Source: Thermoplasmata archaeon
GTDB lineage: Archaea > Thermoplasmatota > Thermoplasmata > Thermoplasmatales > ARK-15
Assembly: GCA_039794005.1 (NCBI GenBank)
Contig: JBAMMA010000017.1
Location: 144,752 to 208,751, forward strand
Reading direction: 5' to 3'
DNA length: 64,000 nucleotides
Shown here piece by piece: positions 3,859 to 45,986 of this stretch. Each line of letters begins with the position of its first letter. Position 1 is the first letter of the stretch. The translations under genes were made by a program, and so were the position numbers. The notes under the pieces are model-generated. The model was not told the DNA's origin, ran no database searches, and saw only the letters and a program-made list of their open reading frames with translations.

Positions 3859-4404
3859 ATGTTAACGATAATACCAAACAAGGTTTTTTTTACAAAAGGC
3901 GTTGGAAGGCATACCAGCGAACTTGGATCTTTTGAAAGGGCCTTAAGGGATGCAGGTATTGCCCAATTTAACTTGGTTGAAGTTTCCTCAATTTTTCCAC
4001 CAAATGCAGAGATAGTTTCTAAAGAGGAGGGATTAAAATATTTAAAACCTGGCCAGATACTTTACGTTGTATTGGCTAGGAATTCAAGCAATGAATTAAA
4101 CAGGCTGATCTCAGCATCTGTTGGTTTGGCAATACCAAAGGATAGAAACATGTATGGATATTTAAGTGAACATCACAGTTTTGGGGAAACTGAGCAAACA
4201 GCAGGAAATTTTGCAGAGGAACTTGCTGCTGAAATGCTTGCATCAACGCTTGGAATAGATCATCACCTCGTATGGGACGAGGAAATAAATACTTGGAAAC
4301 TTGATGATAGGATATTGTTAACTCAAAATATAACATCTACAGCCGTAGTTGAAAAGCCTGGAGAATGGACTACGGTGATTGCTGCAGCAGTTCTGATTCC
4401 ATAA
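3859..4404 (+). CDS. pdaD: pyruvoyl-dependent arginine decarboxylase
   Basis: [31 protein letters not shown]; in an operon with speD. Confidence 0.9.
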
Positions 4405-5287
4405 ATTTTTTAGCTAAATTGTGAGCGGGCCTGATTGGGTCTATGTGATTTAATATTTCTTTACCAATTTTATATGCTCTTCTTAAAGAAATGTGATTTC
4501 CTGGTGAAACATATCTATTTTTAATTTTAAAGCCAATAATTTCTTTTTGATCATATATCATTTCATCGATCAATTTGCCAAATAGAAGTGATTTTGCAAT
4601 ACCTAATGTTGGTTTATCCCATAATATGCCCAGAAATGATGCAAGTCCTATTCTACGTGGATGAAGAATCCCGTTTCCGTCCAATATTCCCAATCCTTCA
4701 GGTATATGATCTAATAAAAGAATTCCTTCTCTATATGACAAATATGTTGGTATATATGGAAAATTGACAATTTTTTTTATGAGTGTATAATCTTCAATTT
4801 TGTAATTTTTAAATTTAACAATAGCAATATATGCATTTCTATCATTATATGATACATCGTATGAATAAATATAATCAAAATCCACATCCTTCAATTCAAG
4901 CTTTTTTAATAGTTCATTTTCGAATTCCCTTATCTTTTTTAATGGATAGTTTGTCCTGAATTCTCTGAATCTTATCTTATCAAATCCTACTATTCTGTTA
5001 TTTTCTACCTTGATTCCTTCAGATTCTAATAGTTCAATCTTTTTCTTTATACCATTTGGATGTGTGAAACCTCCGATTGTTCCATCGCTCTTTACTACCC
5101 TATGACAGGGTATAACAATTGGGTTCGGATTTTTTGATAGCATTTCACCAACTGCCCTCGACGCTATTATGTCCCCTAATGCAGTTGCAAGGTCACCATA
5201 TGTTGATACCATTCCTCTAGGTATTTGCTTCACCAATTCATAAAAATATGAATAAAGATCGATTTTTATTTCTGAAATATCCATCAT
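4370..5287 (-). CDS. O6-alkylguanine-DNA alkyltransferase / endonuclease V fusion (AGT-EndoV)
   Basis: N-terminal [13 protein letters not shown]...PCHRVV; C-terminal DVSY...[12 protein letters not shown]...[15 protein letters not shown]...GIAKSLL...YVSPG. Confidence 0.9.
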
Positions 5288-5300
5288 AAAAATATGTTAT

Positions 5301-6851
5301 TCAGAATATTTCATTTTTTCCCATCAATTCTATTTCATATTGTGAGAGGGGGATTTTAATAGGGATTCTAATATGCTGAGATATCATGAATGCTTCACTT
5401 CCATCTTTTCCAGGGCCTTTTAAATTTTCTATATATTTTATTTCATTTTTATTTAAAGAATAAAAATTTTCCATATCTTCTGAAACTTCATTATGTCTAA
5501 ATATAACATGAATTAGGGAATTGTGCATCATGGTTTTCCCTTTTTCATTTTTCAATAAATCATCCGATTTTTGCGTGATTAAATTTATGGATGTTTTATA
5601 TCTCCTTACATGTCTGAACATCATGTCTAAAATATTCAATAATTCCTCATCCTTCATTATTTTCCATGCCTCGTCTATTACTAAGAATTTTCTTGAATCA
5701 TTTTTTAAAATTGGGATTATAGAATTTAATATTATTTTGATTGATATATAAAAATCCATTTCCTTGATTTTTGAAAAATCAAAAATTATTCCATTTTCCG
5801 GTATTTTATTATTACCAAATAAAAATTTCCCGTATTGGGTATCATAAAAATCGGATATATATGATTTCAAATTTTTTCCTATACTATCTTTAGAATTTAT
5901 TGACTTTAAAATCTTTTGAGCATTACAGTTTACACAACTTTTTATACTTTTTGAAAAATATATCTTTTCTCTTTCACTTAAATGGAAAATGGATGAAAAT
6001 AATGACGATATTCTTTCAACATATTCATCCAGTGATTCACTTTCAAACCTTGTAAATACATCTGGAATATCATCATCGTTTAAATTTGAATATTTAATAT
6101 CCAAGAATTTTGATAAATTTTTATATTCTCCCAATGGATCGATTATAAAATATTTCGTGTTTTTGTAGGATAATTTTTCCCTCATCATTACCATTTTTAC
6201 GAAATGGGATTTACCATAACCTGTAGAACCTGTTATTATGCCATGAGAAGCTGGAAATTCCCATCTGTTAAAGATTATTGGCATATTGTTATAATAATGA
6301 AAGCCGATTAAAATGCCATTTTCCATTATTATTCCATTTCCAGGAAATGGAAATAGGTATGATATTCCATGTGTATGTAATTTTCTACCTTCACTGTTAT
6401 CTGGAGGCATTATGAATTTTTTGTGCTTGTTAAAAATATCGAATTTGTATCTTTTTATTTTAAATTTTTTGGATTTGTATTTGTTTATTATATTATGATA
6501 TTCTTTACCTTTGATATAAATTATAAAATTTACATCGTATAAATGGCCCTTTCCGGATATTATATACTCCAATAACGATTTGGCAGAAACTAATTTATTT
6601 TTGTTCTTTATAATGCTGGAAAAATTTTTACTATTTATTGCAGGAAAAATTCTCTGCGATTCAGACTCTAAAATTTTTATTGAAAAATTGTCGCTTATGC
6701 TCTTAATATCAATTCTCATCGAATGTGGTTCCTCTGTCAGTATTTCAGATAATTCCGAAAATTTTATCCTTGCTGGAAGGTCCAATTCAAAATAACTTAT
6801 ATTGTTTTTACCTTTTTCTATTCTATCCTTTAATATTTTCATTTTTATCAC
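5301..6851 (-). CDS. VirB4/TraC/CedB-like ATPase (HerA/FtsK superfamily)
   Basis: Walker A HGIITGSTGYGKS, IIDPLGEY, Walker B LVIDEAW, RHVRRY...LITQ. Confidence 0.85.
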   Translation of the reverse strand: MIKMKILKDRIEKGKNNISYFELDLPARIKFSELSEILTEEPHSMRIDIKSISDNFSIKILESESQRIFPAINSKNFSSIIKNKNKLVSAKSLLEYIISGKGHLYDVNFIIYIKGKEYHNIINKYKSKKFKIKRYKFDIFNKHKKFIMPPDNSEGRKLHTHGISYLFPFPGNGIIMENGILIGFHYYNNMPIIFNRWEFPASHGIITGSTGYGKSHFVKMVMMREKLSYKNTKYFIIDPLGEYKNLSKFLDIKYSNLNDDDIPDVFTRFESESLDEYVERISSLFSSIFHLSEREKIYFSKSIKSCVNCNAQKILKSINSKDSIGKNLKSYISDFYDTQYGKFLFGNNKIPENGIIFDFSKIKEMDFYISIKIILNSIIPILKNDSRKFLVIDEAWKIMKDEELLNILDMMFRHVRRYKTSINLITQKSDDLLKNEKGKTMMHNSLIHVIFRHNEVSEDMENFYSLNKNEIKYIENLKGPGKDGSEAFMISQHIRIPIKIPLSQYEIELMGKNEIF

Positions 6852-7116
6852 CCAAGATTACAATCAAAATATATGTTAGAGAGACAAAAATGAATACATA
6901 ATTTATAAAAAAGAAAAGAAAAGTTATGAATATTAAGAAAGAAACTATTGAATATAAAAATTGATTTTTTAAAATGAAATATAAAAAGATTAAAGATGCA
7001 TTCATTAATATTATTCCAAATATGTTTTTCGATATATAGGAATATAAAATCGAAATTGAAAGGGACAATAGTAAAAAATCTCTATAAAATTTCAACATAA
7101 TGACCAAAGCCTCCAT
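6823..7116 (-). CDS. small multi-pass membrane protein in T4SS-like cluster
   Basis: 97 aa, almost entirely hydrophobic; overlaps both neighbours. Confidence 0.55.
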   Translation of the reverse strand: MEALVIMLKFYRDFLLLSLSISILYSYISKNIFGIILMNASLIFLYFILKNQFLYSIVSFLIFITFLFFFINYVFIFVSLTYILIVILGDKNENIKG

Positions 7117-7823
7117 ATAGAATATGAAAATTCATCAACTTTCATTTTATTAAAATTAAATTCGAATGATGATATATTTGAAATAATTTTTTCAAGAGAT
7201 TCCAATTCTTCAACGTTTCCGTTTTTTGATGAAAAAACAATGAATGTTTTTAAAAATACCCTCTTTTCAAAATTATTATTAATTAAAATTTTAATTTCAT
7301 TAGAATATTCATTTTCAATTTCGAATCTAATGTCTGGAATTTCATCGTATAAATTAAAAATAGTTATGTCAAAGTTCGTTAAATTTAAAATCTCTATGAA
7401 TTTTTCCTTTAATTCTTCCTTCTTTTCATCATCTAAAAATTCACTGCCTACATATTTTACTGAATATGAAACAGATAATTTATCATTCCATTTAAATATA
7501 AATTCATTTACTTTTCTTATAGATGCATATTTTTCAATCTCAAATTCTTTAACGTTTTTTCTTGATAAAATATAATAAAAATTTTTGTATAATGTAACAT
7601 CAATATATTCTCCTCTCACCTTTATTAATGGTATTAATATTAAAATAATTATAATTATCAGAATTACAAATTCTTTTGTCAAATAAAAAAGCAAAATAAA
7701 TGGAGTTGATAGAATTATTGAATTTTTAATTTTGGATATTGGAAAATTCATTATAAAAATATCGTTCATTATATTTTCTGGAATATCTATCTCCTTCATT
7801 TTAGAATAACACCAGCGAACCAA
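7092..7823 (-). CDS. PrgI/VirB3-like membrane protein with soluble C-terminal domain
   Basis: KEIDIPENI...two adjacent TM segments, then about 170 soluble residues; lies between the VirB6-like and VirB4-like genes. True start is probably the later Met (MKEIDIP). Confidence 0.55.
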   Translation of the reverse strand: MVRWCYSKMKEIDIPENIMNDIFIMNFPISKIKNSIILSTPFILLFYLTKEFVILIIIIILILIPLIKVRGEYIDVTLYKNFYYILSRKNVKEFEIEKYASIRKVNEFIFKWNDKLSVSYSVKYVGSEFLDDEKKEELKEKFIEILNLTNFDITIFNLYDEIPDIRFEIENEYSNEIKILINNNFEKRVFLKTFIVFSSKNGNVEELESLEKIISNISSFEFNFNKMKVDEFSYSIWRLWSLC

Positions 7824-8805
7824 TCATTTCAATTCCATTTGAAATAATATCCTTGGCTTTTAAAAGTATACCAAACCTTGGAAATAGAGAATATCCCGTG
7901 GGATAACCCATCCTGGACATTGAAAATGTAACTACATATGGTATAAGCATTGATACCAATAGTATCGCTATCCAAAACAATGGATCTTGAATTATTCCCA
8001 TCAGCATAATCAAAGGGGCCATAAATATTATTTCTATACTTCTATCTATGAACGTAAGCCACATTCTTTTTCCTATTTCATATGTTCCATTGAATGTTAA
8101 AAATATTGAGAACAGAGGGAGAAACATAATGAAAAAATATATCCACACAATTCTCATAACTAGTACAATTGTGAATGCTAGCACTACTGTAAATAACGTT
8201 AATAATATCAATAATTCCAAAAGATTGTTTTCGGTATATGCAAAATATATATAGTTATTTAAAAAATAGTTGAAAGGCCATAATTCTAGATCTGATATTC
8301 CTTGGTATGGATTTGGTGTTCCTGACCAATTTATCTGCATTCCTGAATAAAAATAAATATATATTGCTCTCAACAATGAAAATAAAAGATCTGATATTAT
8401 TAAAGAAAAATAGGCCAAAATGATTCCTAAGACTATATTAAATAAATAGTCGTTCCTTTCATGAAAAATAAATTGCTTTTTCCAAAGATAATAGAATCCT
8501 GAAAATATTATGAATATAGAAATTGAAGGAGACACTATATAATTTAATATTAAATAATTGATGTTTACTGCAAAGTCCATACCTATCTGAGAAAATATTG
8601 GATAAATCGATGATTCATTTTTATAATACAATGGATTTAATGGAGGTATTTGACCATTTATCAATATTTGTGGAAATGCAAAATTTGGATTAAGCAATGG
8701 AAATGTAAAAGAAGCCCATATTATTGCCAATCCAAAAATTAATGCAGAATTTATTGTTGATAAAAAATCGAATAAAATTAAATTTATTGCTGTTGATAAT
8801 GCCAT
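7801..8805 (-). CDS. VirB6/TrbL/CedA-like polytopic membrane protein
   Basis: About 7 hydrophobic segments; MRIVWIYFFIMFLPLFSIFLTF...KRMW matches the R-x(n)-P-L...W pattern of VirB6-like proteins. Confidence 0.65.
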   Translation of the reverse strand: MALSTAINLILFDFLSTINSALIFGLAIIWASFTFPLLNPNFAFPQILINGQIPPLNPLYYKNESSIYPIFSQIGMDFAVNINYLILNYIVSPSISIFIIFSGFYYLWKKQFIFHERNDYLFNIVLGIILAYFSLIISDLLFSLLRAIYIYFYSGMQINWSGTPNPYQGISDLELWPFNYFLNNYIYFAYTENNLLELLILLTLFTVVLAFTIVLVMRIVWIYFFIMFLPLFSIFLTFNGTYEIGKRMWLTFIDRSIEIIFMAPLIMLMGIIQDPLFWIAILLVSMLIPYVVTFSMSRMGYPTGYSLFPRFGILLKAKDIISNGIEMIGSLVLF

Positions 8806-8808
8806 AAT

Positions 8809-9150
8809 TCATCCTGTTGCAATGAAACTTATTATATTGACTATGGTTGAGGCACCTAGAACTATGAATGATGCAAGCAACATTATAGGCAAATCATGTT
8901 TAAATTTCATTATACCCTCTCTATCATCTTTGTGGAAGAATAAAAATAATCCTTCATATATCCAGAATATAGCAAGTATGGATCCAGCAATTGTGTTAAC
9001 GACTATGGTTAATCTCGATATAACTTCTTTTAATTGCTGTGTGGCATTTTCTTGAATATTTATAGTATAATGGCTGCCTTCATTGAACACATATTGGTTA
9101 TTCCCTATTGTGGATAATATAAATAAGGCTATTATTAAATAATGAATCAT
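8809..9150 (-). CDS. VirB2/TrbC-like pilin precursor
   Basis: 113 aa: N-terminal signal-like segment, then two hydrophobic helices separated by the charged loop HKDDREGIMKFKHD; first gene of the cluster. Confidence 0.6.
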   Translation of the reverse strand: MIHYLIIALFILSTIGNNQYVFNEGSHYTINIQENATQQLKEVISRLTIVVNTIAGSILAIFWIYEGLFLFFHKDDREGIMKFKHDLPIMLLASFIVLGASTIVNIISFIATG

Positions 9151-9185
9151 GATTTTTAGATTAATTTTATTTATATAAAACTTTC

Positions 9186-9230
9186 TTTATAAATTTTATA
9201 ATTTTTATGATTTTTATAAATTTTATATTT
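9186..9230. repeat. five tandem 9-bp direct repeats (consensus TTTATAAWT), candidate operator
   Basis: TTTATAAAT TTTATAATT TTTATGATT TTTATAAAT TTTATATTT in the divergent intergenic region. Confidence 0.55.
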
Positions 9231-9333
9231 CACGTTTGAAAAATTTTCAGAAAAATATTAATTCTTGTATTTATTTTTCATGATTTTTTCCATTTTTCTA
9301 AAAATTTAAATATTATTTTTTATAAGGTATATT

Positions 9334-9576
9334 ATGGTTGAATCGCGAGCGTCAATAGGGGTAAAGCATTCAACTAAGGAATTATTGACATATGTATCTG
9401 CACAGGTCCAGAGCGAGGTTGAGAGGGGAGATATAACATGGGACGAATTTCTGATTTATTTAGCAATAAAATATTTGGACAATAAAGGAATATCATTTAA
9501 TGAAATATTAAAGAAATTAAATATTGATGTTGAAGAATTTGAAAGGGTAAGCAAAAGAGTTCAAGTGATGAAATGA
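9334..9576 (+). CDS. small ribbon-helix-helix-like DNA-binding protein
   Basis: ASIGVKHSTKELL...TWDEFLIYL strand-helix-helix pattern; ATGA overlap with the next gene. Confidence 0.55.
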   Translation: MVESRASIGVKHSTKELLTYVSAQVQSEVERGDITWDEFLIYLAIKYLDNKGISFNEILKKLNIDVEEFERVSKRVQVMK

Positions 9577-15787: not shown

Positions 15788-15899
15788 AAAAATATCAGAA
15801 ATTAATTTATTATTTTTATTTATTTTTAAAGAGAATAATTAATAAAAATGTCAAATTAGCAAAAAATTTTAAATATATAATTTAATATAAAAAAACTTG

Positions 15900-16634
15900 A
15901 TGCGATTGTTAATAAATTTAACATCCGATAAACATGTTCCAAAAGAATATTTTAACAAATATTATTTTCAGAGTTCTATATATTTTAATTTGATAAATAC
16001 AAATTTTGAAAATCTCCATAATAAGAAGGGATTTAAATTTTTCACTTTTAGCGATTTTTTTCCCTCTGGCGATCTTGAACCAAATAAGATAAAGAGTGTA
16101 ATCATATCTTCACCGAATAAAGATTTCATCAAAACATTGTTCGATAAGATGAATGATAATGGATTAATATATTTGTCTGAGAAAAAACTGAATATTTCAT
16201 CTCTAAAAGTTTATGAGATTAAAAATGTGCCAAAGATTTTCGAGACAGGAAGTCCAATAGTTTTACAGGTGGAGAAAAAATATAACAAATATTTTTCCTT
16301 TAAAAATAATAATAGCATTTCATGTTTCTTAAGGCGTTTAAAAGAAAATGCAATTAAAAAATATACCACATATTATAACATTGAAGAATTTAATTTTGAA
16401 GAATTTATATTTGATGAATTAATGTTTAAAAGAGAGGTTGTTGTAAATTTAAAAAAGAATGGAAAAAATTTCTTAATGATAGGATCTACATGGTATTATT
16501 TAAAAAAGATTCGCATATCTAATGATCTGTTGAATTTTTATAGATTTATAATGGAAGCTGGTTTAGGCGAAAAGAATAGTTTGGGTTTCGGTTTTATAAA
16601 TCCAAAGAAAATTAAGGATAAAAGAATCAAATAA
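15900..16634 (+). CDS. cas6: CRISPR-associated endoribonuclease Cas6 (orphan)
   Basis: LHNKKGFKFFTFS and C-terminal G-rich loop GLGEKNSLGFG. Confidence 0.9.
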   Translation: MRLLINLTSDKHVPKEYFNKYYFQSSIYFNLINTNFENLHNKKGFKFFTFSDFFPSGDLEPNKIKSVIISSPNKDFIKTLFDKMNDNGLIYLSEKKLNISSLKVYEIKNVPKIFETGSPIVLQVEKKYNKYFSFKNNNSISCFLRRLKENAIKKYTTYYNIEEFNFEEFIFDELMFKREVVVNLKKNGKNFLMIGSTWYYLKKIRISNDLLNFYRFIMEAGLGEKNSLGFGFINPKKIKDKRIK

Positions 16635-41547: not shown

Positions 41548-42639
41548 ATGTCTCCCAATCTTCAAGTTAAAGACCAGAAAATATTTCCAAATGGAGGAAA
41601 TACTGAATTAAGCGAGGAAGATAAAGATCTTTTAGAAATATTAAAAGGAATGAGAACTGTAATAAAGATAATAGGCTGCGGTGGCGGAGGTTCTAATACT
41701 ATAACAAGATTAATGGAGGAGGGAATTGTCGGTGCTGAGCTAATAGCGGCCAATACTGATGCTCAACATCTTTTAATAACTAAGGCGCAGAAGAAAATAT
41801 TGTTGGGTAAAAGATTGTTAAGGGGTTTTGGTGCTGGGGCTATTCCAAACGTTGGAGAGGAGGCCGCAAAAGAGGCTGAGGAAAATATAAAAGAGGCATT
41901 AAGAGGTTCGGATATCGTTTTCATTACATGTGGCCTGGGTGGTGGTACGGGTACAGGTTCAGCCCCGGTTGTAGCAAAGATAGCAAAAGAACTTGGAGCT
42001 TTGACAATAGCTGTATGTACTTTGCCATTTTCATCTGAAGGAAAATTGAGAATGGAAAATGCCGTTTATGGACTTGATAAATTGAGGTTGCATGCAGATA
42101 CAGTCATTACGATACCAAATGACAAATTGTTGCAAATAGCCCCAAGGATGCCACTTAATTCTGCTTTTAGATTGGCAGACACAGTGTTGATGAGGGCAAT
42201 AAAGGGATTAACTGAAATGATCACAAAACCAGGCATAGTAAATCTTGATTTCAATGATCTTAGAACAATAATGAAGGAGGGAGGAGTGGCTATGATCGGA
42301 GTAGGTGAAAGTTCTTCAGCAGGAGATGCAAAGGCAAGGGAGGCCCTGGAAACTGCAATCAATTCACCTCTGCTTGAGGTCGATATTTCAACAGCCACCG
42401 GCGTGTTGATACATGTTATTGGAGGCCCTGAGATGAGCGTTAGTGAAGCCCAGTTGATTGTCTCAGAGATACATAAAAAGGTAGGAGATAAGGCCAGAAT
42501 CATATGGGGTGCTGCGGTTGATCCAGAATATGAAGGAAAGATAAACGTAATGATCGTTGCAACAGGTGTTAAATCAAATCAAATAATGGGTAAAATTTCT
42601 CCGGAAGATATAAATAAGAGTATTGATAAAATAAAATGA
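41548..42639 (+). CDS. ftsZ: cell division protein FtsZ
   Basis: [30 protein letters not shown]. Confidence 0.97.
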
Positions 42640-42645
42640 TAGTTT

Positions 42646-44097
42646 ATGTTCAACGGTCCTCTTGAAAAAATAGATGATTTCAGGTGGAGGATACCAAAAA
42701 CTTATAAAAAGGGGATGAAGGTAGACGGTATTATTATTGCAAGTGAGCACATGCTCAACGATATTAGAAATGACAATGCCCCAGAACAGGTAGCCAACGT
42801 TGCAACACTTCCAGGTATTATAAGGGCATCATATGCCATGCCAGATATACATTGGGGATATGGTTTCCCAATAGGAGGCGTGGCCGCATTCGATTTTGAT
42901 GAAGGTGTCATATCCCCTGGAGGCGTCGGATATGACATAAATTGCGGTGTAAAGATGGTAAGAACAAATTTAACGATAAAAGATGTGAGACCAAAGATAA
43001 AAGAGCTCGTTGATACAATTTTTGAAGAAGTACCCAGCGGTGTTGGGTCAGAGGGAAAAATCAAGCTGAATAGGAACGACCTGAACGGGGTGTTATCCGA
43101 GGGTGCTAAATGGGCTGTTGAAAATGGATATGGCTGGCAGGAGGATCTTGAGAGAATCGAAGAGTATGGAAGGATTGAGGGGGGCGATCCTAGCAAGATC
43201 TCCGAAAAGGCCAAATCGAGGGGGGCGCCACAGCTCGGCACCCTCGGAGCGGGAAATCATTTTCTTGAGGTTCAGGTCGTAGATAAAATATTTTTGCCGG
43301 ATGTAGCAAAGAGGTTTGGAATTTTCGAAGAGGGTCAGATTACTGTAATGATACATACAGGGTCTCGTGGCCTTGGTCATCAGGTGGCAACAGATTATAT
43401 AGAAATAATGGAATCTGCTGCAAAGAAATATAAGATTGAGCTTGTGGATAAACAGCTAGCCGCTGCACCAATACATTCTAAGGAAGCTCAGGATTATATC
43501 TCAGCAATGGCTGGTGCTGCAAATTTCGGTTTTGTCAACAGGCAGATGATTAACCATTGGACAAGGAGAGCATTTGAAAGGATTTTCAAAACGGATGCCG
43601 AGAGTTTAGATATGCATGTAATATACAGTGTAGCACATAATATTGCAAAGATCGAGGAATATGAAATAGACGGAAAAAGAAGAAAGGTTGTTGTGCATAG
43701 AAAAGGTGCAACCAGGGCATTTCCAGCGAATCATCCATCACTTCCAGATATATACAAGGATATTGGCCAGCCCGTATTGATACCGGGTGATATGGGAAGG
43801 GCATCTTATCTGTTGGTCGGGACACAAAGGGCGATGGAGGAAACGTTTGGATCCACATGTCACGGTGCAGGAAGGGTTTTGTCCAGGAATGAAGCACTTA
43901 GAAGATATAGGGGTGAAGCGGTAAAGAGGGAACTATTAAACAATGGAATATATGTAAAATCTGCAACATCAGAAGTTGCAGCCGAAGAGGCTCCTGGAGC
44001 ATATAAAAACGTTGATGATGTGGTAAATGCCGTAGAAGGGGCAGGAATATCTAGGATAGTAGTAAGGTTGAGGCCAATAGGAGTTATGAAAGGATAA
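42646..44097 (+). CDS. rtcB: RNA-splicing ligase RtcB
   Basis: MPDIHWGYGFPIGG, GYDINCG, GNHFLE, HRKGATRA, HGAGR. Confidence 0.97.
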   Translation: MFNGPLEKIDDFRWRIPKTYKKGMKVDGIIIASEHMLNDIRNDNAPEQVANVATLPGIIRASYAMPDIHWGYGFPIGGVAAFDFDEGVISPGGVGYDINCGVKMVRTNLTIKDVRPKIKELVDTIFEEVPSGVGSEGKIKLNRNDLNGVLSEGAKWAVENGYGWQEDLERIEEYGRIEGGDPSKISEKAKSRGAPQLGTLGAGNHFLEVQVVDKIFLPDVAKRFGIFEEGQITVMIHTGSRGLGHQVATDYIEIMESAAKKYKIELVDKQLAAAPIHSKEAQDYISAMAGAANFGFVNRQMINHWTRRAFERIFKTDAESLDMHVIYSVAHNIAKIEEYEIDGKRRKVVVHRKGATRAFPANHPSLPDIYKDIGQPVLIPGDMGRASYLLVGTQRAMEETFGSTCHGAGRVLSRNEALRRYRGEAVKRELLNNGIYVKSATSEVAAEEAPGAYKNVDDVVNAVEGAGISRIVVRLRPIGVMKG

Positions 44098-45913: not shown

Positions 45914-45986
45914 GCCCCGGTGGTGTAGTGGCCTATCATATGGGACTGTCACTCCCATGACCTGGGTTCAAATCCCAGCCGGGGCG
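45914..45986 (+). tRNA. tRNA-Asp(GTC)
   Basis: GCCCCGG/CCGGGGC acceptor stem, TGGGA-CTGTCAC-TCCCA anticodon arm, GGTTCAAATCC T arm; CCA not encoded. Confidence 0.96.

Follow-up and report, generated by a model that had tools for sequence, protein, structure and literature searches.

The 64,000-nucleotide window analyzed here (positions 144,752 to 208,751 of contig JBAMMA010000017.1, assembly GCA_039794005.1, from a Thermoplasmata archaeon) contains, at 5301-9150, a cluster of five genes that encodes the core of a type IV secretion system (T4SS). On balance, we favor the reading that this is a minimal, chromosomally fixed T4SS of the monoderm (MPF-FATA-like) kind, most likely serving the pilus-mediated transfer or import of chromosomal DNA. 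Its products resemble VirB2, VirB6, PrgI/VirB3 and VirB4, and models indicate that the VirB4 motor is divided over two polypeptides. The assembly (G000), in which the window belongs to contig C17, totals 1.10 Mb, is 87% complete and has a G+C content of 31.3%.

Gene products and the divided motor

The five open reading frames (ORFs) are co-oriented on the minus strand, and neighbors overlap by 23-29 nt or stand 3 nt apart, as an earlier sequence-only reading of the window had described. That reading quoted motifs for the ATPase and for a 334-residue membrane protein, all of which are present in the translations, and it recognized a T4SS-like core with VirB2-, VirB6-, PrgI/VirB3- and VirB4-like parts. 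Pfam, NCBIfam, AlphaFold2 (AF2) models searched with Foldseek, and distant profile matches support this assignment, the VirB2 and PrgI/VirB3 parts through matches below the curated cut-offs.

The ATPase is the 516-residue protein. It matches the Pfam families AAA_10 (2e-14, 53.9 bits, cut-off 27.5), P-loop_TraG (3e-10, 39.6 bits, cut-off 25.8) and DUF87 (7e-11), and its sole clear sequence match in the PDB is the VirB4 of entry 4ag5 (4.5e-7). Among NCBIfam models it matches conju_CD1110 (1.6e-27), VirB4_plasma (4.6e-24), TraC-F (5e-21) and VirB4_CagE (1.3e-11), with all scores below the cut-offs set for full-length proteins, since ~300 N-terminal positions are missing here: residue 17 aligns to position 317 of the 894 in VirB4_plasma. 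A VirB4 model gives 96 bits, whereas the CedB model (NF041017, DNA_import_CedB) gives 33.2 bits (2.1e-8) against a cut-off of 700. The motifs GSTGYGKS, IDPLGEY, IDEAW, RHVRRY and ITQ are in place, an alignment of 15 orthologues shows no variation at the Walker A, Walker B and arginine residues, and there is no hydrophobic helix. The matches mark the protein as a genuine VirB4 of the monoderm (MPF-FATA-like) type and not a CedB equivalog. HerA was considered as another identity and rejected: VirB4 models outscore HerA models by far, and a canonical HerA with a HAS barrel is encoded on contig C1.

Where are the first ~300 positions of this VirB4? The 243-residue product of the cluster appears to supply part of them. 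In nine of the 17 members of its family, residues ~14-82 match almost the full length of the PF12666 PrgI profile, with scores of 15-23 bits (cut-off 27). PrgI is the VirB3 analogue of Gram-positive systems. In the AF2 model of the protein (predicted local-distance difference test, pLDDT, 77.5), residues 100-243 can be superposed on TrwK/VirB4 (residues 20-203; five entries), with Z 8.3-10.1, a root-mean-square deviation (rmsd) of 3.0 Å and 140-142 residues aligned; the next unrelated fold reaches Z 6.2. The protein would thus join a PrgI/VirB3-like hairpin, recognized from sub-cut-off matches, to the first VirB4 N-terminal subdomain. Since its soluble domain matches the VirB4 N-terminus and the 516-residue protein starts ~300 positions in, the models indicate that VirB4 is divided over two polypeptides, one supplying the anchor and first subdomain and the other the remaining N-terminal domain with the ATPase. 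The additional PrgI/VirB3-like subunit of the sequence-only reading would be present as a hairpin, on a protein that also carries a piece of VirB4. VirB3-VirB4 fusions occur in known systems, and the arrangement here, if true, offers a natural example of VirB4 divided into two polypeptides.

A predicted complex of the two proteins agrees with this division. Its ipSAE is 0.84, compared with 0.39 for the best control, at least 96% of the contacts agree between runs, and the partner pLDDT is at least 86; among reference sets, 58 of 80 solved complexes and 2 of 110 mismatched pairs attained the pass mark. The predicted interface pairs a strand of the ATPase (residues 44-49) with one of its partner (residues 152-157). 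When the 243-residue family was aligned by hhalign to the 721-residue long-form VirB4 (P0007), only a 22-column match at a probability of 0.8% was obtained, so the sequences themselves do not prove a fused ancestor. Some homologues of the 243-residue protein and some long VirB4/TraC proteins have the precomputed label PF26593 in common. Both ORFs probably begin a few codons downstream of their listed starts, judging from database copies of 513 residues for the ATPase and 235 for its partner. The latter length corresponds to a likely start at 7799, and the orthologues start with MKEIDIPE.

The 334-residue protein is identified by three kinds of evidence. Its motif R..(11)..PL...T...G...W contains R218, P230, T241 and W249, which are invariant in 36 aligned homologues. 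An AF2 model built from this 36-row alignment (pLDDT 75.7; predicted TM-score, pTM, 0.72) was searched against the PDB with Foldseek, and the top five matches are all TrwI/VirB6 of R388 (probability 0.96-0.99, E 0.05-0.4). Superposition by VIA-align covers 234 of 272 residues with rmsd 5.4 Å and a Z of 10.9, which is above the next unrelated fold (Z 5.9) but below the ~13 that helical bundles can reach by arrangement alone. No direct Pfam match was found for the window copy or among 14 members scanned. A family profile, which reaches 1398 representatives at E <=1e-3, provides a transitive link: of 55 distant matches scanned, seven carry PF04610 TrbL/VirB6, two carry TrbL_4 and none carries another family, and an arginine and a proline 12 residues apart are invariant in these 55 as well. 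In the ESM Atlas the protein lies closest to clusters of TrbL_4/TrbL_5 (score 0.93). Structure, transitive sequence link and Atlas together point to a VirB6/TrbL-like channel subunit. At locus L015 (690-1744, plus strand) the VirB6-like gene reads as two overlapping ORFs of 86 and 288 residues, a frameshift or assembly error in that metagenome-assembled genome (MAG).

The 113-residue protein has the build of a pilin precursor: a short leader at the N-terminus is combined with two hydrophobic helices (segments 43-72 and 86-113), the charged loop HKDDREG..KFKHD lies between them, and an N-A-T sequon is conserved. Six of 12 family members match PF18895 T4SS_pilin (best E 2.8e-5, 24.6 bits, cut-off 26.6) and six match PF04956 TrbC/VirB2 (best E 5.7e-4, under the curated cut-off). 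Identity between genera is ~70%, and R46, W63, D76, R77, K82 and G113 are invariant. The leader may be a Sec signal peptide and the sequon may be glycosylated. The remaining product, of 97 residues, has three hydrophobic segments and is conserved in position more than in sequence: an ORF of 92-108 residues stands there in every locus of the same family (f1; genera g1, g3 and g4) that reaches that far, one of 136-142 residues in families f4 and f5, and none in f3 or genus g2. It matches no family in Pfam, PHROGs or NCBIfam, and its best ESM Atlas score is only 0.81. NCBIfam returned nothing for the four non-ATPase proteins and PHROGs nothing useful; profile searches of PDB sequences with the pilin and VirB6-like families gave chance-level matches only (G-protein-coupled receptors, NDUFB4, E >=0.06).

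Chromosomal setting and descent

Is the cluster a fixture of the chromosome or a passenger in it? Of 41 genomes of the order, counting G000, 33 yielded a VirB4: 15/15 in f1, the family of the window's genome, 7/8 in f3, 1/1 in f4, 3/7 in f5 and 6/7 in f7 (weak matches), with 0/1 in f2 and 0/1 in f6. Synteny was compared over 12 f1 loci of genera g1, g3 and g4, the window included. The order pilin, VirB6, PrgI/VirB4 N-terminus, small protein, VirB4 is kept in the window and in 9 of the 11 further loci, and the remaining two reach a contig edge; across the three genera the order is thus kept wherever the contig allows. These loci are bracketed by genes for a fusion of endonuclease V and O6-methylguanine-DNA methyltransferase (EndoV-MGMT), arginine decarboxylase (ArgDC) and S-adenosylmethionine decarboxylase on one side, and by p80, p83, GcvT, PdxT and TFB on the other. 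EndoV-MGMT lies directly downstream of virB4 in eight of the 12 loci and 3.3 kb off in one, and TFB stands there instead in three. Genus g2 has the PrgI-like gene and virB4 beside purL/purS and its VirB6-like gene at another site in the genome. In the window itself both flanks are housekeeping, with Pus10 and L21e genes in addition to EndoV-MGMT and the two decarboxylases on one side and DUF1015, GcvT, PdxT, TFB and UbiD genes on the other.

Across the class, 54 of 301 genomes contain a match to the VirB6-like profile (f1 3/3; f17 33/37, including two unpublished genomes, G129 and G240; f7 13/33; f5 2/5; f21 2/41; none in the rest, e.g. 0/39 and 0/35). Sampled loci of f17, f7 and f21 have the same order of pilin, VirB6, (PrgI/VirB4 N-terminus) and VirB4.

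A quick maximum-likelihood tree of 51 VirB4 rows, rooted at the midpoint and with several long branches and uneven amino-acid composition, follows this taxonomy. One clade (SH-aLRT 95) unites the 15 f1 rows, and genera g1, g2 and g3 are each monophyletic (100). The f3 rows form another (100), as do the f4/f5 rows together with named DHVE2 and Aciduliprofundum MAG rows (100), and all lie within a 30-row Thermoplasmata clade (99). Excluded from it are the enzymes of pNOB8, pT33-3 and a Halomarina plasmid, haloarchaeal chromosomal copies, the Ferroplasma/Oxyplasma group, Micrarchaeia and bacteria. A locus on the chromosome of Oxyplasma meridianum M1 was matched, and its VirB4 falls outside the 30-row clade. 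By synteny and phylogeny, then, the cluster is chromosomal and has been passed on vertically in this Thermoplasmata order, which argues that the machine serves the cell and not a plasmid. On all these points the sequence-only reading has held up: it had placed the cluster between chromosomal genes of a Thermoplasmatota-like host, which the nearest named loci (Thermoplasmata) bear out, and had proposed a domesticated system.

Could the cluster instead be what is left of a plasmid or integrated conjugative element that is decaying in the chromosome? We give this very little credence. The G+C content of the cluster is 25.4%, in the 2.6th percentile of the genome's 3.85-kb windows, which could signify foreign origin; two neighboring genes, DUF1015 (25.2%) and p83 (22.6%), are equally low. 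VirB4 evolves fast, with ~35% identity between genera compared with ~84% for ArgDC, and the system is patchy at the level of order and class (VirB4 in 3/7 genomes of f5, the VirB6 profile in 13/33 of f7) and is thus dispensable. Against decay, all five ORFs are intact with invariant catalytic residues, the housekeeping neighborhood is common to three genera, all 15 f1 genomes carry VirB4, and the tree follows genus and family. None of the marks of a conjugative element (relaxase, coupling protein, integrase or replication genes, att sites) was found linked to the T4SS genes. No tyrosine recombinase is encoded on contig C17, no PF03432 relaxase (the only relaxase family searched) was found in the 87% complete genome, and no convincing direct att-like repeats flank the cluster. 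Nor is there a close plasmid relative: none of 198 matching plasmid records covers at least 80% of VirB4, and the best match, pNOB8, has 22.7% identity over 66%. A decayed integrated element was rejected on these grounds. The statement of the sequence-only reading that there is no relaxase, VirD4-like ATPase or integrase holds for the window; the genome as a whole encodes two tyrosine recombinases, on contigs C1 and C11, and two TraD/VirD4-like ATPases.

Cargo, mechanism and neighboring genes

What would such a machine move? By analogy, DNA exchange or import is the best-supported function, for four reasons. Homologous archaeal systems of known function move DNA; the genome holds two soluble TraD/VirD4-like ATPases; in the sister family f3 the gene of a TraD-like relative of one of them overlaps virB4; and a DNA-repair gene lies 13 nt downstream of virB4 in the window and directly downstream in most f1 loci.

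The two soluble ATPases, of 621 residues on contig C12 and 844 residues on contig C6, are encoded at unlinked sites. The 621-residue enzyme matches TrwB_AAD_bind (26 bits, over the cut-off) and TraG-D_C (20 bits), and is present in 15/15 genomes of f1, 8/8 of f3, 5/7 of f7 and 0/7 of f5. The f3 gene encodes a TraD/FtsK-like ATPase of 672-679 residues and overlaps the 3' end of virB4; its closest relative in G000 is the 844-residue enzyme. Around the gene on C12 (L040, 546-8734, minus strand), a 226-residue protein of no known family precedes the 621-residue ATPase, which has a C-terminal extension and is followed by a 1526-residue pro-kumamolisin/subtilase-like protein and then by a NurA nuclease gene. 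On C6 (L042, 6014-8548, plus strand), the 844-residue ATPase has an N-terminal extension of ~250 residues; its gene stands beside genes for geranylgeranylglyceryl phosphate synthase (PcrB family) and a UbiA prenyltransferase and is convergent with that of a 525-residue DEAD/ResIII helicase.

The proposed mechanism runs as follows. The pilin precursor would be inserted in the membrane and lose its leader, and the VirB6-like protein would be the membrane platform and channel for pilin extraction and polymerization. The motor would be a VirB4 hexamer built from two polypeptides, in which the 243-residue protein anchors the assembly by its VirB3/PrgI-like hairpin and contributes the first N-terminal subdomain, and the 516-residue protein contributes the remainder of that domain and the ATPase. 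The 97-residue membrane protein would be an accessory subunit. The pilus would then move chromosomal DNA between cells, as in crenarchaeal Ted and Ced, and one of the soluble TraD/VirD4-like ATPases encoded elsewhere may feed the substrate.

The same domesticated machine might carry something other than DNA, acting as a pilus or tube for adhesion, for contact, or for delivery of proteins or metabolites to neighboring cells, which could include DPANN/ARMAN-type symbionts of Thermoplasmatales. We regard this as unlikely, though it has the strongest claim after the transfer or import of DNA. It fits a genome with no PF03432 relaxase found and a locus with no linked coupling ATPase. Upstream of the VirB6-like gene in f4 and f5, moreover, stand genes for proteins of 320-597 residues with a C-terminal T4SS_pilin domain; these would be pilins much extended at the N-terminus, possibly tip or adhesin subunits, and suggest surface or adhesin functions. 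At L030 (11058-12851, minus strand) and L033 (12301-13263 and 13260-14321, minus strand) it is the last ~60 residues that match T4SS_pilin. Patescibacteria keep a chromosomal, non-conjugative T4SS derived from MPF-FATA, as the available text of PMC12102498 describes it, and cryo-tomography of acid-mine biofilms recorded Thermoplasmatales pili and tubular structures that penetrate ARMAN cells, according to the portion available of PMC4110969. In favor of DNA, the archaeal systems that have this component set and a known function (Ced, pNOB8 and pT33-3) all move DNA as far as the sources at hand describe them, the f3 operon contains a TraD/FtsK-like ATPase gene, and no candidate effector genes conserved beside the operon were seen at the f1, f17, f7 and f21 loci.

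An improbable alternative to cell-to-cell exchange is a competence machine that takes up free environmental DNA, like the ComB T4SS of Helicobacter. The composition of the cluster is minimal and no coupling protein is linked to it, the carrier genomes are small (1.0-1.6 Mb in f1), and Ced imports rather than exports DNA according to the main text of PMC9905601. The strong conservation of the VirB2-type pilin between genera nevertheless points to a cell-contacting pilus, and no ComEC-like channel or DNA receptor turned up near the locus, where no dedicated search was made.

Several observations weigh against exchange or import of chromosomal DNA by a domesticated T4SS, beyond the low G+C content, the fast evolution of VirB4 and the patchiness described above. 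The window's own pilin copy reaches only E 0.067 and the matches of its relatives all lie below Pfam's curated cut-offs, as do all PrgI matches, and the VirB6 superposition is one that helical bundles can exceed. The pass of the predicted motor complex may reflect the model's memory of, or likeness to, solved VirB4, and not independent evidence, because VirB4 structures have already been solved. In this genome the TraD-like ATPases are encoded away from the locus, and none of them shows a clear membrane anchor. Sequencing runs listed for this DNA comprise four DNA runs from two studies and no RNA run. Row L069 of the tree, from a MAG of a candidate division WOR-3 bacterium, nests among the DHVE2/Aciduliprofundum-like rows and represents either a mis-binned archaeal contig or a transfer. 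Finally, the near-universal chromosomal T4SS of Patescibacteria indicate that such machines need not serve conjugation (PMC12102498, in the text available).

The features of the locus are collected in Table 1. The EndoV-MGMT gene, co-oriented with virB4, may be co-transcribed with it, and we treat it as a neighbor rather than a demonstrated part of the system. In its product the MGMT DNA-binding domain (residues 14-92) precedes endonuclease V (residues 131-289), and the fusion is kept in other f1 genera at 52-66% identity, usually right after virB4. A TATA-like TTTATATA at 9172-9179, 22-29 nt ahead of the ATG of the pilin gene, might be a promoter element of that gene, in a spacer so AT-rich that similar strings are common. 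Orthologues of the divergent p80 (36-50% identity) lie beside or near the pilin gene in five further f1 loci (L016, L017, L020, L021 and L024). It has no family match in Pfam or NCBIfam, and our guess is that it could be a small DNA-binding regulator.

Table 1. Features of the T4SS-like cluster and its borders, in window coordinates
Feature	Position	Strand	Basis
VirB2/TrbC-like pilin precursor (putative), 113 aa	8809..9150	-	topology and sub-cut-off Pfam matches of relatives
VirB6/TrbL-like polytopic membrane channel subunit (putative), 334 aa	7801..8805	-	AF2 model, Foldseek, VIA-align, distant profile links
PrgI/VirB3-like hairpin and first VirB4 N-terminal subdomain (predicted), 243 aa	7092..7823	-	Pfam of relatives, AF2 model
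Small three-helix membrane protein, 97 aa	6823..7116	-	hydrophobic segments, conserved position
VirB4-type ATPase without first N-terminal subdomain, 516 aa	5301..6851	-	Pfam, PDB, NCBIfam
Endonuclease V / O6-methylguanine-DNA methyltransferase fusion	4370..5287	-	Pfam Endonuclease_5 6e-31, DNA_binding_1 1e-26
AT-rich intergenic region upstream of pilin gene, 183 nt	9151..9333	-	read from sequence
Conserved divergent 80-aa protein (p80)	9334..9576	+	orthologues in f1 loci

Elsewhere in the window, a 245-residue ORF at 15897-16634 (plus strand) ends in a glycine-rich GLGEKNSLGFGFI motif that may resemble those of Cas6 endoribonucleases. Tandem Repeats Finder detected no arrays in the window. 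A G+C peak of 42% against ~31% occupies 42001-44000, with no rRNA or other Rfam family beneath it; tRNA-Asp (45914-45986) was the sole RNA gene detected in the whole window.

Relation to known systems

Domesticated conjugation machinery has so far been described only for Crenarchaeota. Ced, of Sulfolobales and Desulfurococcales (CedA, CedA1, CedA2 and CedB, with CedD and CedE), is a domesticated T4SS-like core according to the available text of PMC9905601 and PMC11868833, and Ted, of Thermoproteales, comprises the pilin TedC, the VirB6-like TedA and the VirB4-like TedB (Beltran et al. 2023, PMC9905601, main text). In that main text T4SS domestication is unreported beyond the Ced and Ted organisms and Thermoplasma does not appear; two 2025 reviews or analyses (one of them PMC12102498) name only Ced, Ted and plasmids for archaea in the parts available. 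The components themselves have been listed before. Golyshina et al. 2016 (PMC5155288, in the part available) assigned to Cuniculiplasma divulgatum 'type IV secretion components', namely arCOG05340, the VirB4 arCOG04034, arCOG05369 and a membrane protein found only in Thermoplasmatales, with a separate TraG/TraD/VirD4 protein, arCOG04816. A 2023 paper, in its accessible text, mentions a VirB4 in 'E-plasma' and leaves it uninterpreted. The expectation of the sequence-only reading that the system was undescribed in this lineage is therefore correct for its interpretation, since no account of Thermoplasmata components as a domesticated system was found in the main texts (homologues may appear in supplementary tables and trees of PMC9905601, PMC11868833 and PMC12102498), but not for the parts.

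What would a class-wide chromosomal T4SS with a VirB3-like element mean, if true? It would widen both the Ced/Ted picture and that of VirB3 in archaea, and suggest one way in which genes may flow within archaeal populations of hot, acidic and hydrothermal habitats. We put forward, tentatively, a wider proposal: that a conjugation-type pilus machine of ancient origin, passed on vertically, is common to many Thermoplasmata (Aciduliprofundum/DHVE2-like lineages, the acidophilic 'plasmas' and another large family). A T4SS would then have been domesticated independently for the third time in archaea, and for the first time outside Thermoproteota. With its split VirB4 and VirB3-like anchor, the machine might exchange chromosomal DNA and perhaps build the tubes that penetrate DPANN symbionts. 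Cultured carriers appear to exist (Oxyplasma meridianum M1, and Cuniculiplasma as reported), which makes the idea directly testable.

The plasmids pNOB8 and pT33-3, so far as the literature available covers them, share with the cluster a VirB4-like ATPase of one superfamily and the lack of a recognizable relaxase. Their enzymes, however, have only 22-25% identity over 56-66% of the protein and group in a separate clade (99) of the VirB4 tree, and the systems are plasmid-borne, with an integrase nearby in pNOB8. The monoderm systems are closer in composition. The MPF-FATA set consists of a PrgI/VirB3-like protein, the VirB4 PrgJ and the VirB6-like PrgH/TcpH (PMC12102498, text available), and the cluster shares with monoderm systems its best VirB4 family matches (CD1110 and the types of Mycoplasma integrative and conjugative elements) and, going by sub-cut-off matches, probably a PrgI-like subunit and a T4SS_pilin-type (PF18895) pilin. 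Like the T4SS of Patescibacteria, it sits in the chromosome and is nearly universal in lineages with small genomes. It differs from both in its archaeal host, its split VirB4 and a locus without VirB8-like, hydrolase or coupling-protein genes.

The Cuniculiplasma set consists of four clustered genes, among them virB4 and one for a multipass protein, and of a TraD-like ATPase encoded at an unlinked site; judged from the published description, it is probably the same system. The published account, in the part available of PMC5155288, is a one-sentence annotation, whereas the present analysis adds pilin, VirB6 and VirB3 assignments, the split VirB4, distribution, phylogeny and a functional proposal.

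Is the system, then, more like Ced or like Ted? The sequence-only reading had called it Ced/Ted-like; only the second half of that name survives. Ted was compared by its published description and the Ced ATPase through the NCBIfam CedB model only. Like Ced, the cluster encodes a domesticated T4SS-like core in which the motor's N-terminal domain is spread over two polypeptides: in a 2025 mLife paper (PMC11868833, available text) the N-terminal domains of CedB and CedD match different parts of the VirB4 N-terminal domain. In contrast, CedB and CedD are HerA-clade ATPases and the enzyme here fits VirB4 models; both Ced pieces are ATPases and here only one is; and VirB3 and VirB8 homologues are stated in the same text to be absent from archaea, whereas the present locus encodes a putative PrgI/VirB3-like hairpin. 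Like Ted, the system is chromosomal, lineage-wide and without a relaxase (as far as PF03432 tells), and has the same three core parts, a putative pilin with an apparently cleavable leader, and a true VirB4 as its ATPase. Unlike Ted, it occurs in Thermoplasmatota instead of Thermoproteales, has a split VirB4 with a VirB3/PrgI-like hairpin on the N-terminal piece and an extra 97-residue membrane protein, and its locus is without ParA, Rad50 and HerA genes. Because its ATPase matches VirB4 models and not the CedB equivalog, the system is Ted-like rather than Ced-like; by analogy it may work as Ted does, and we class it beside Ted, not as a member of it.

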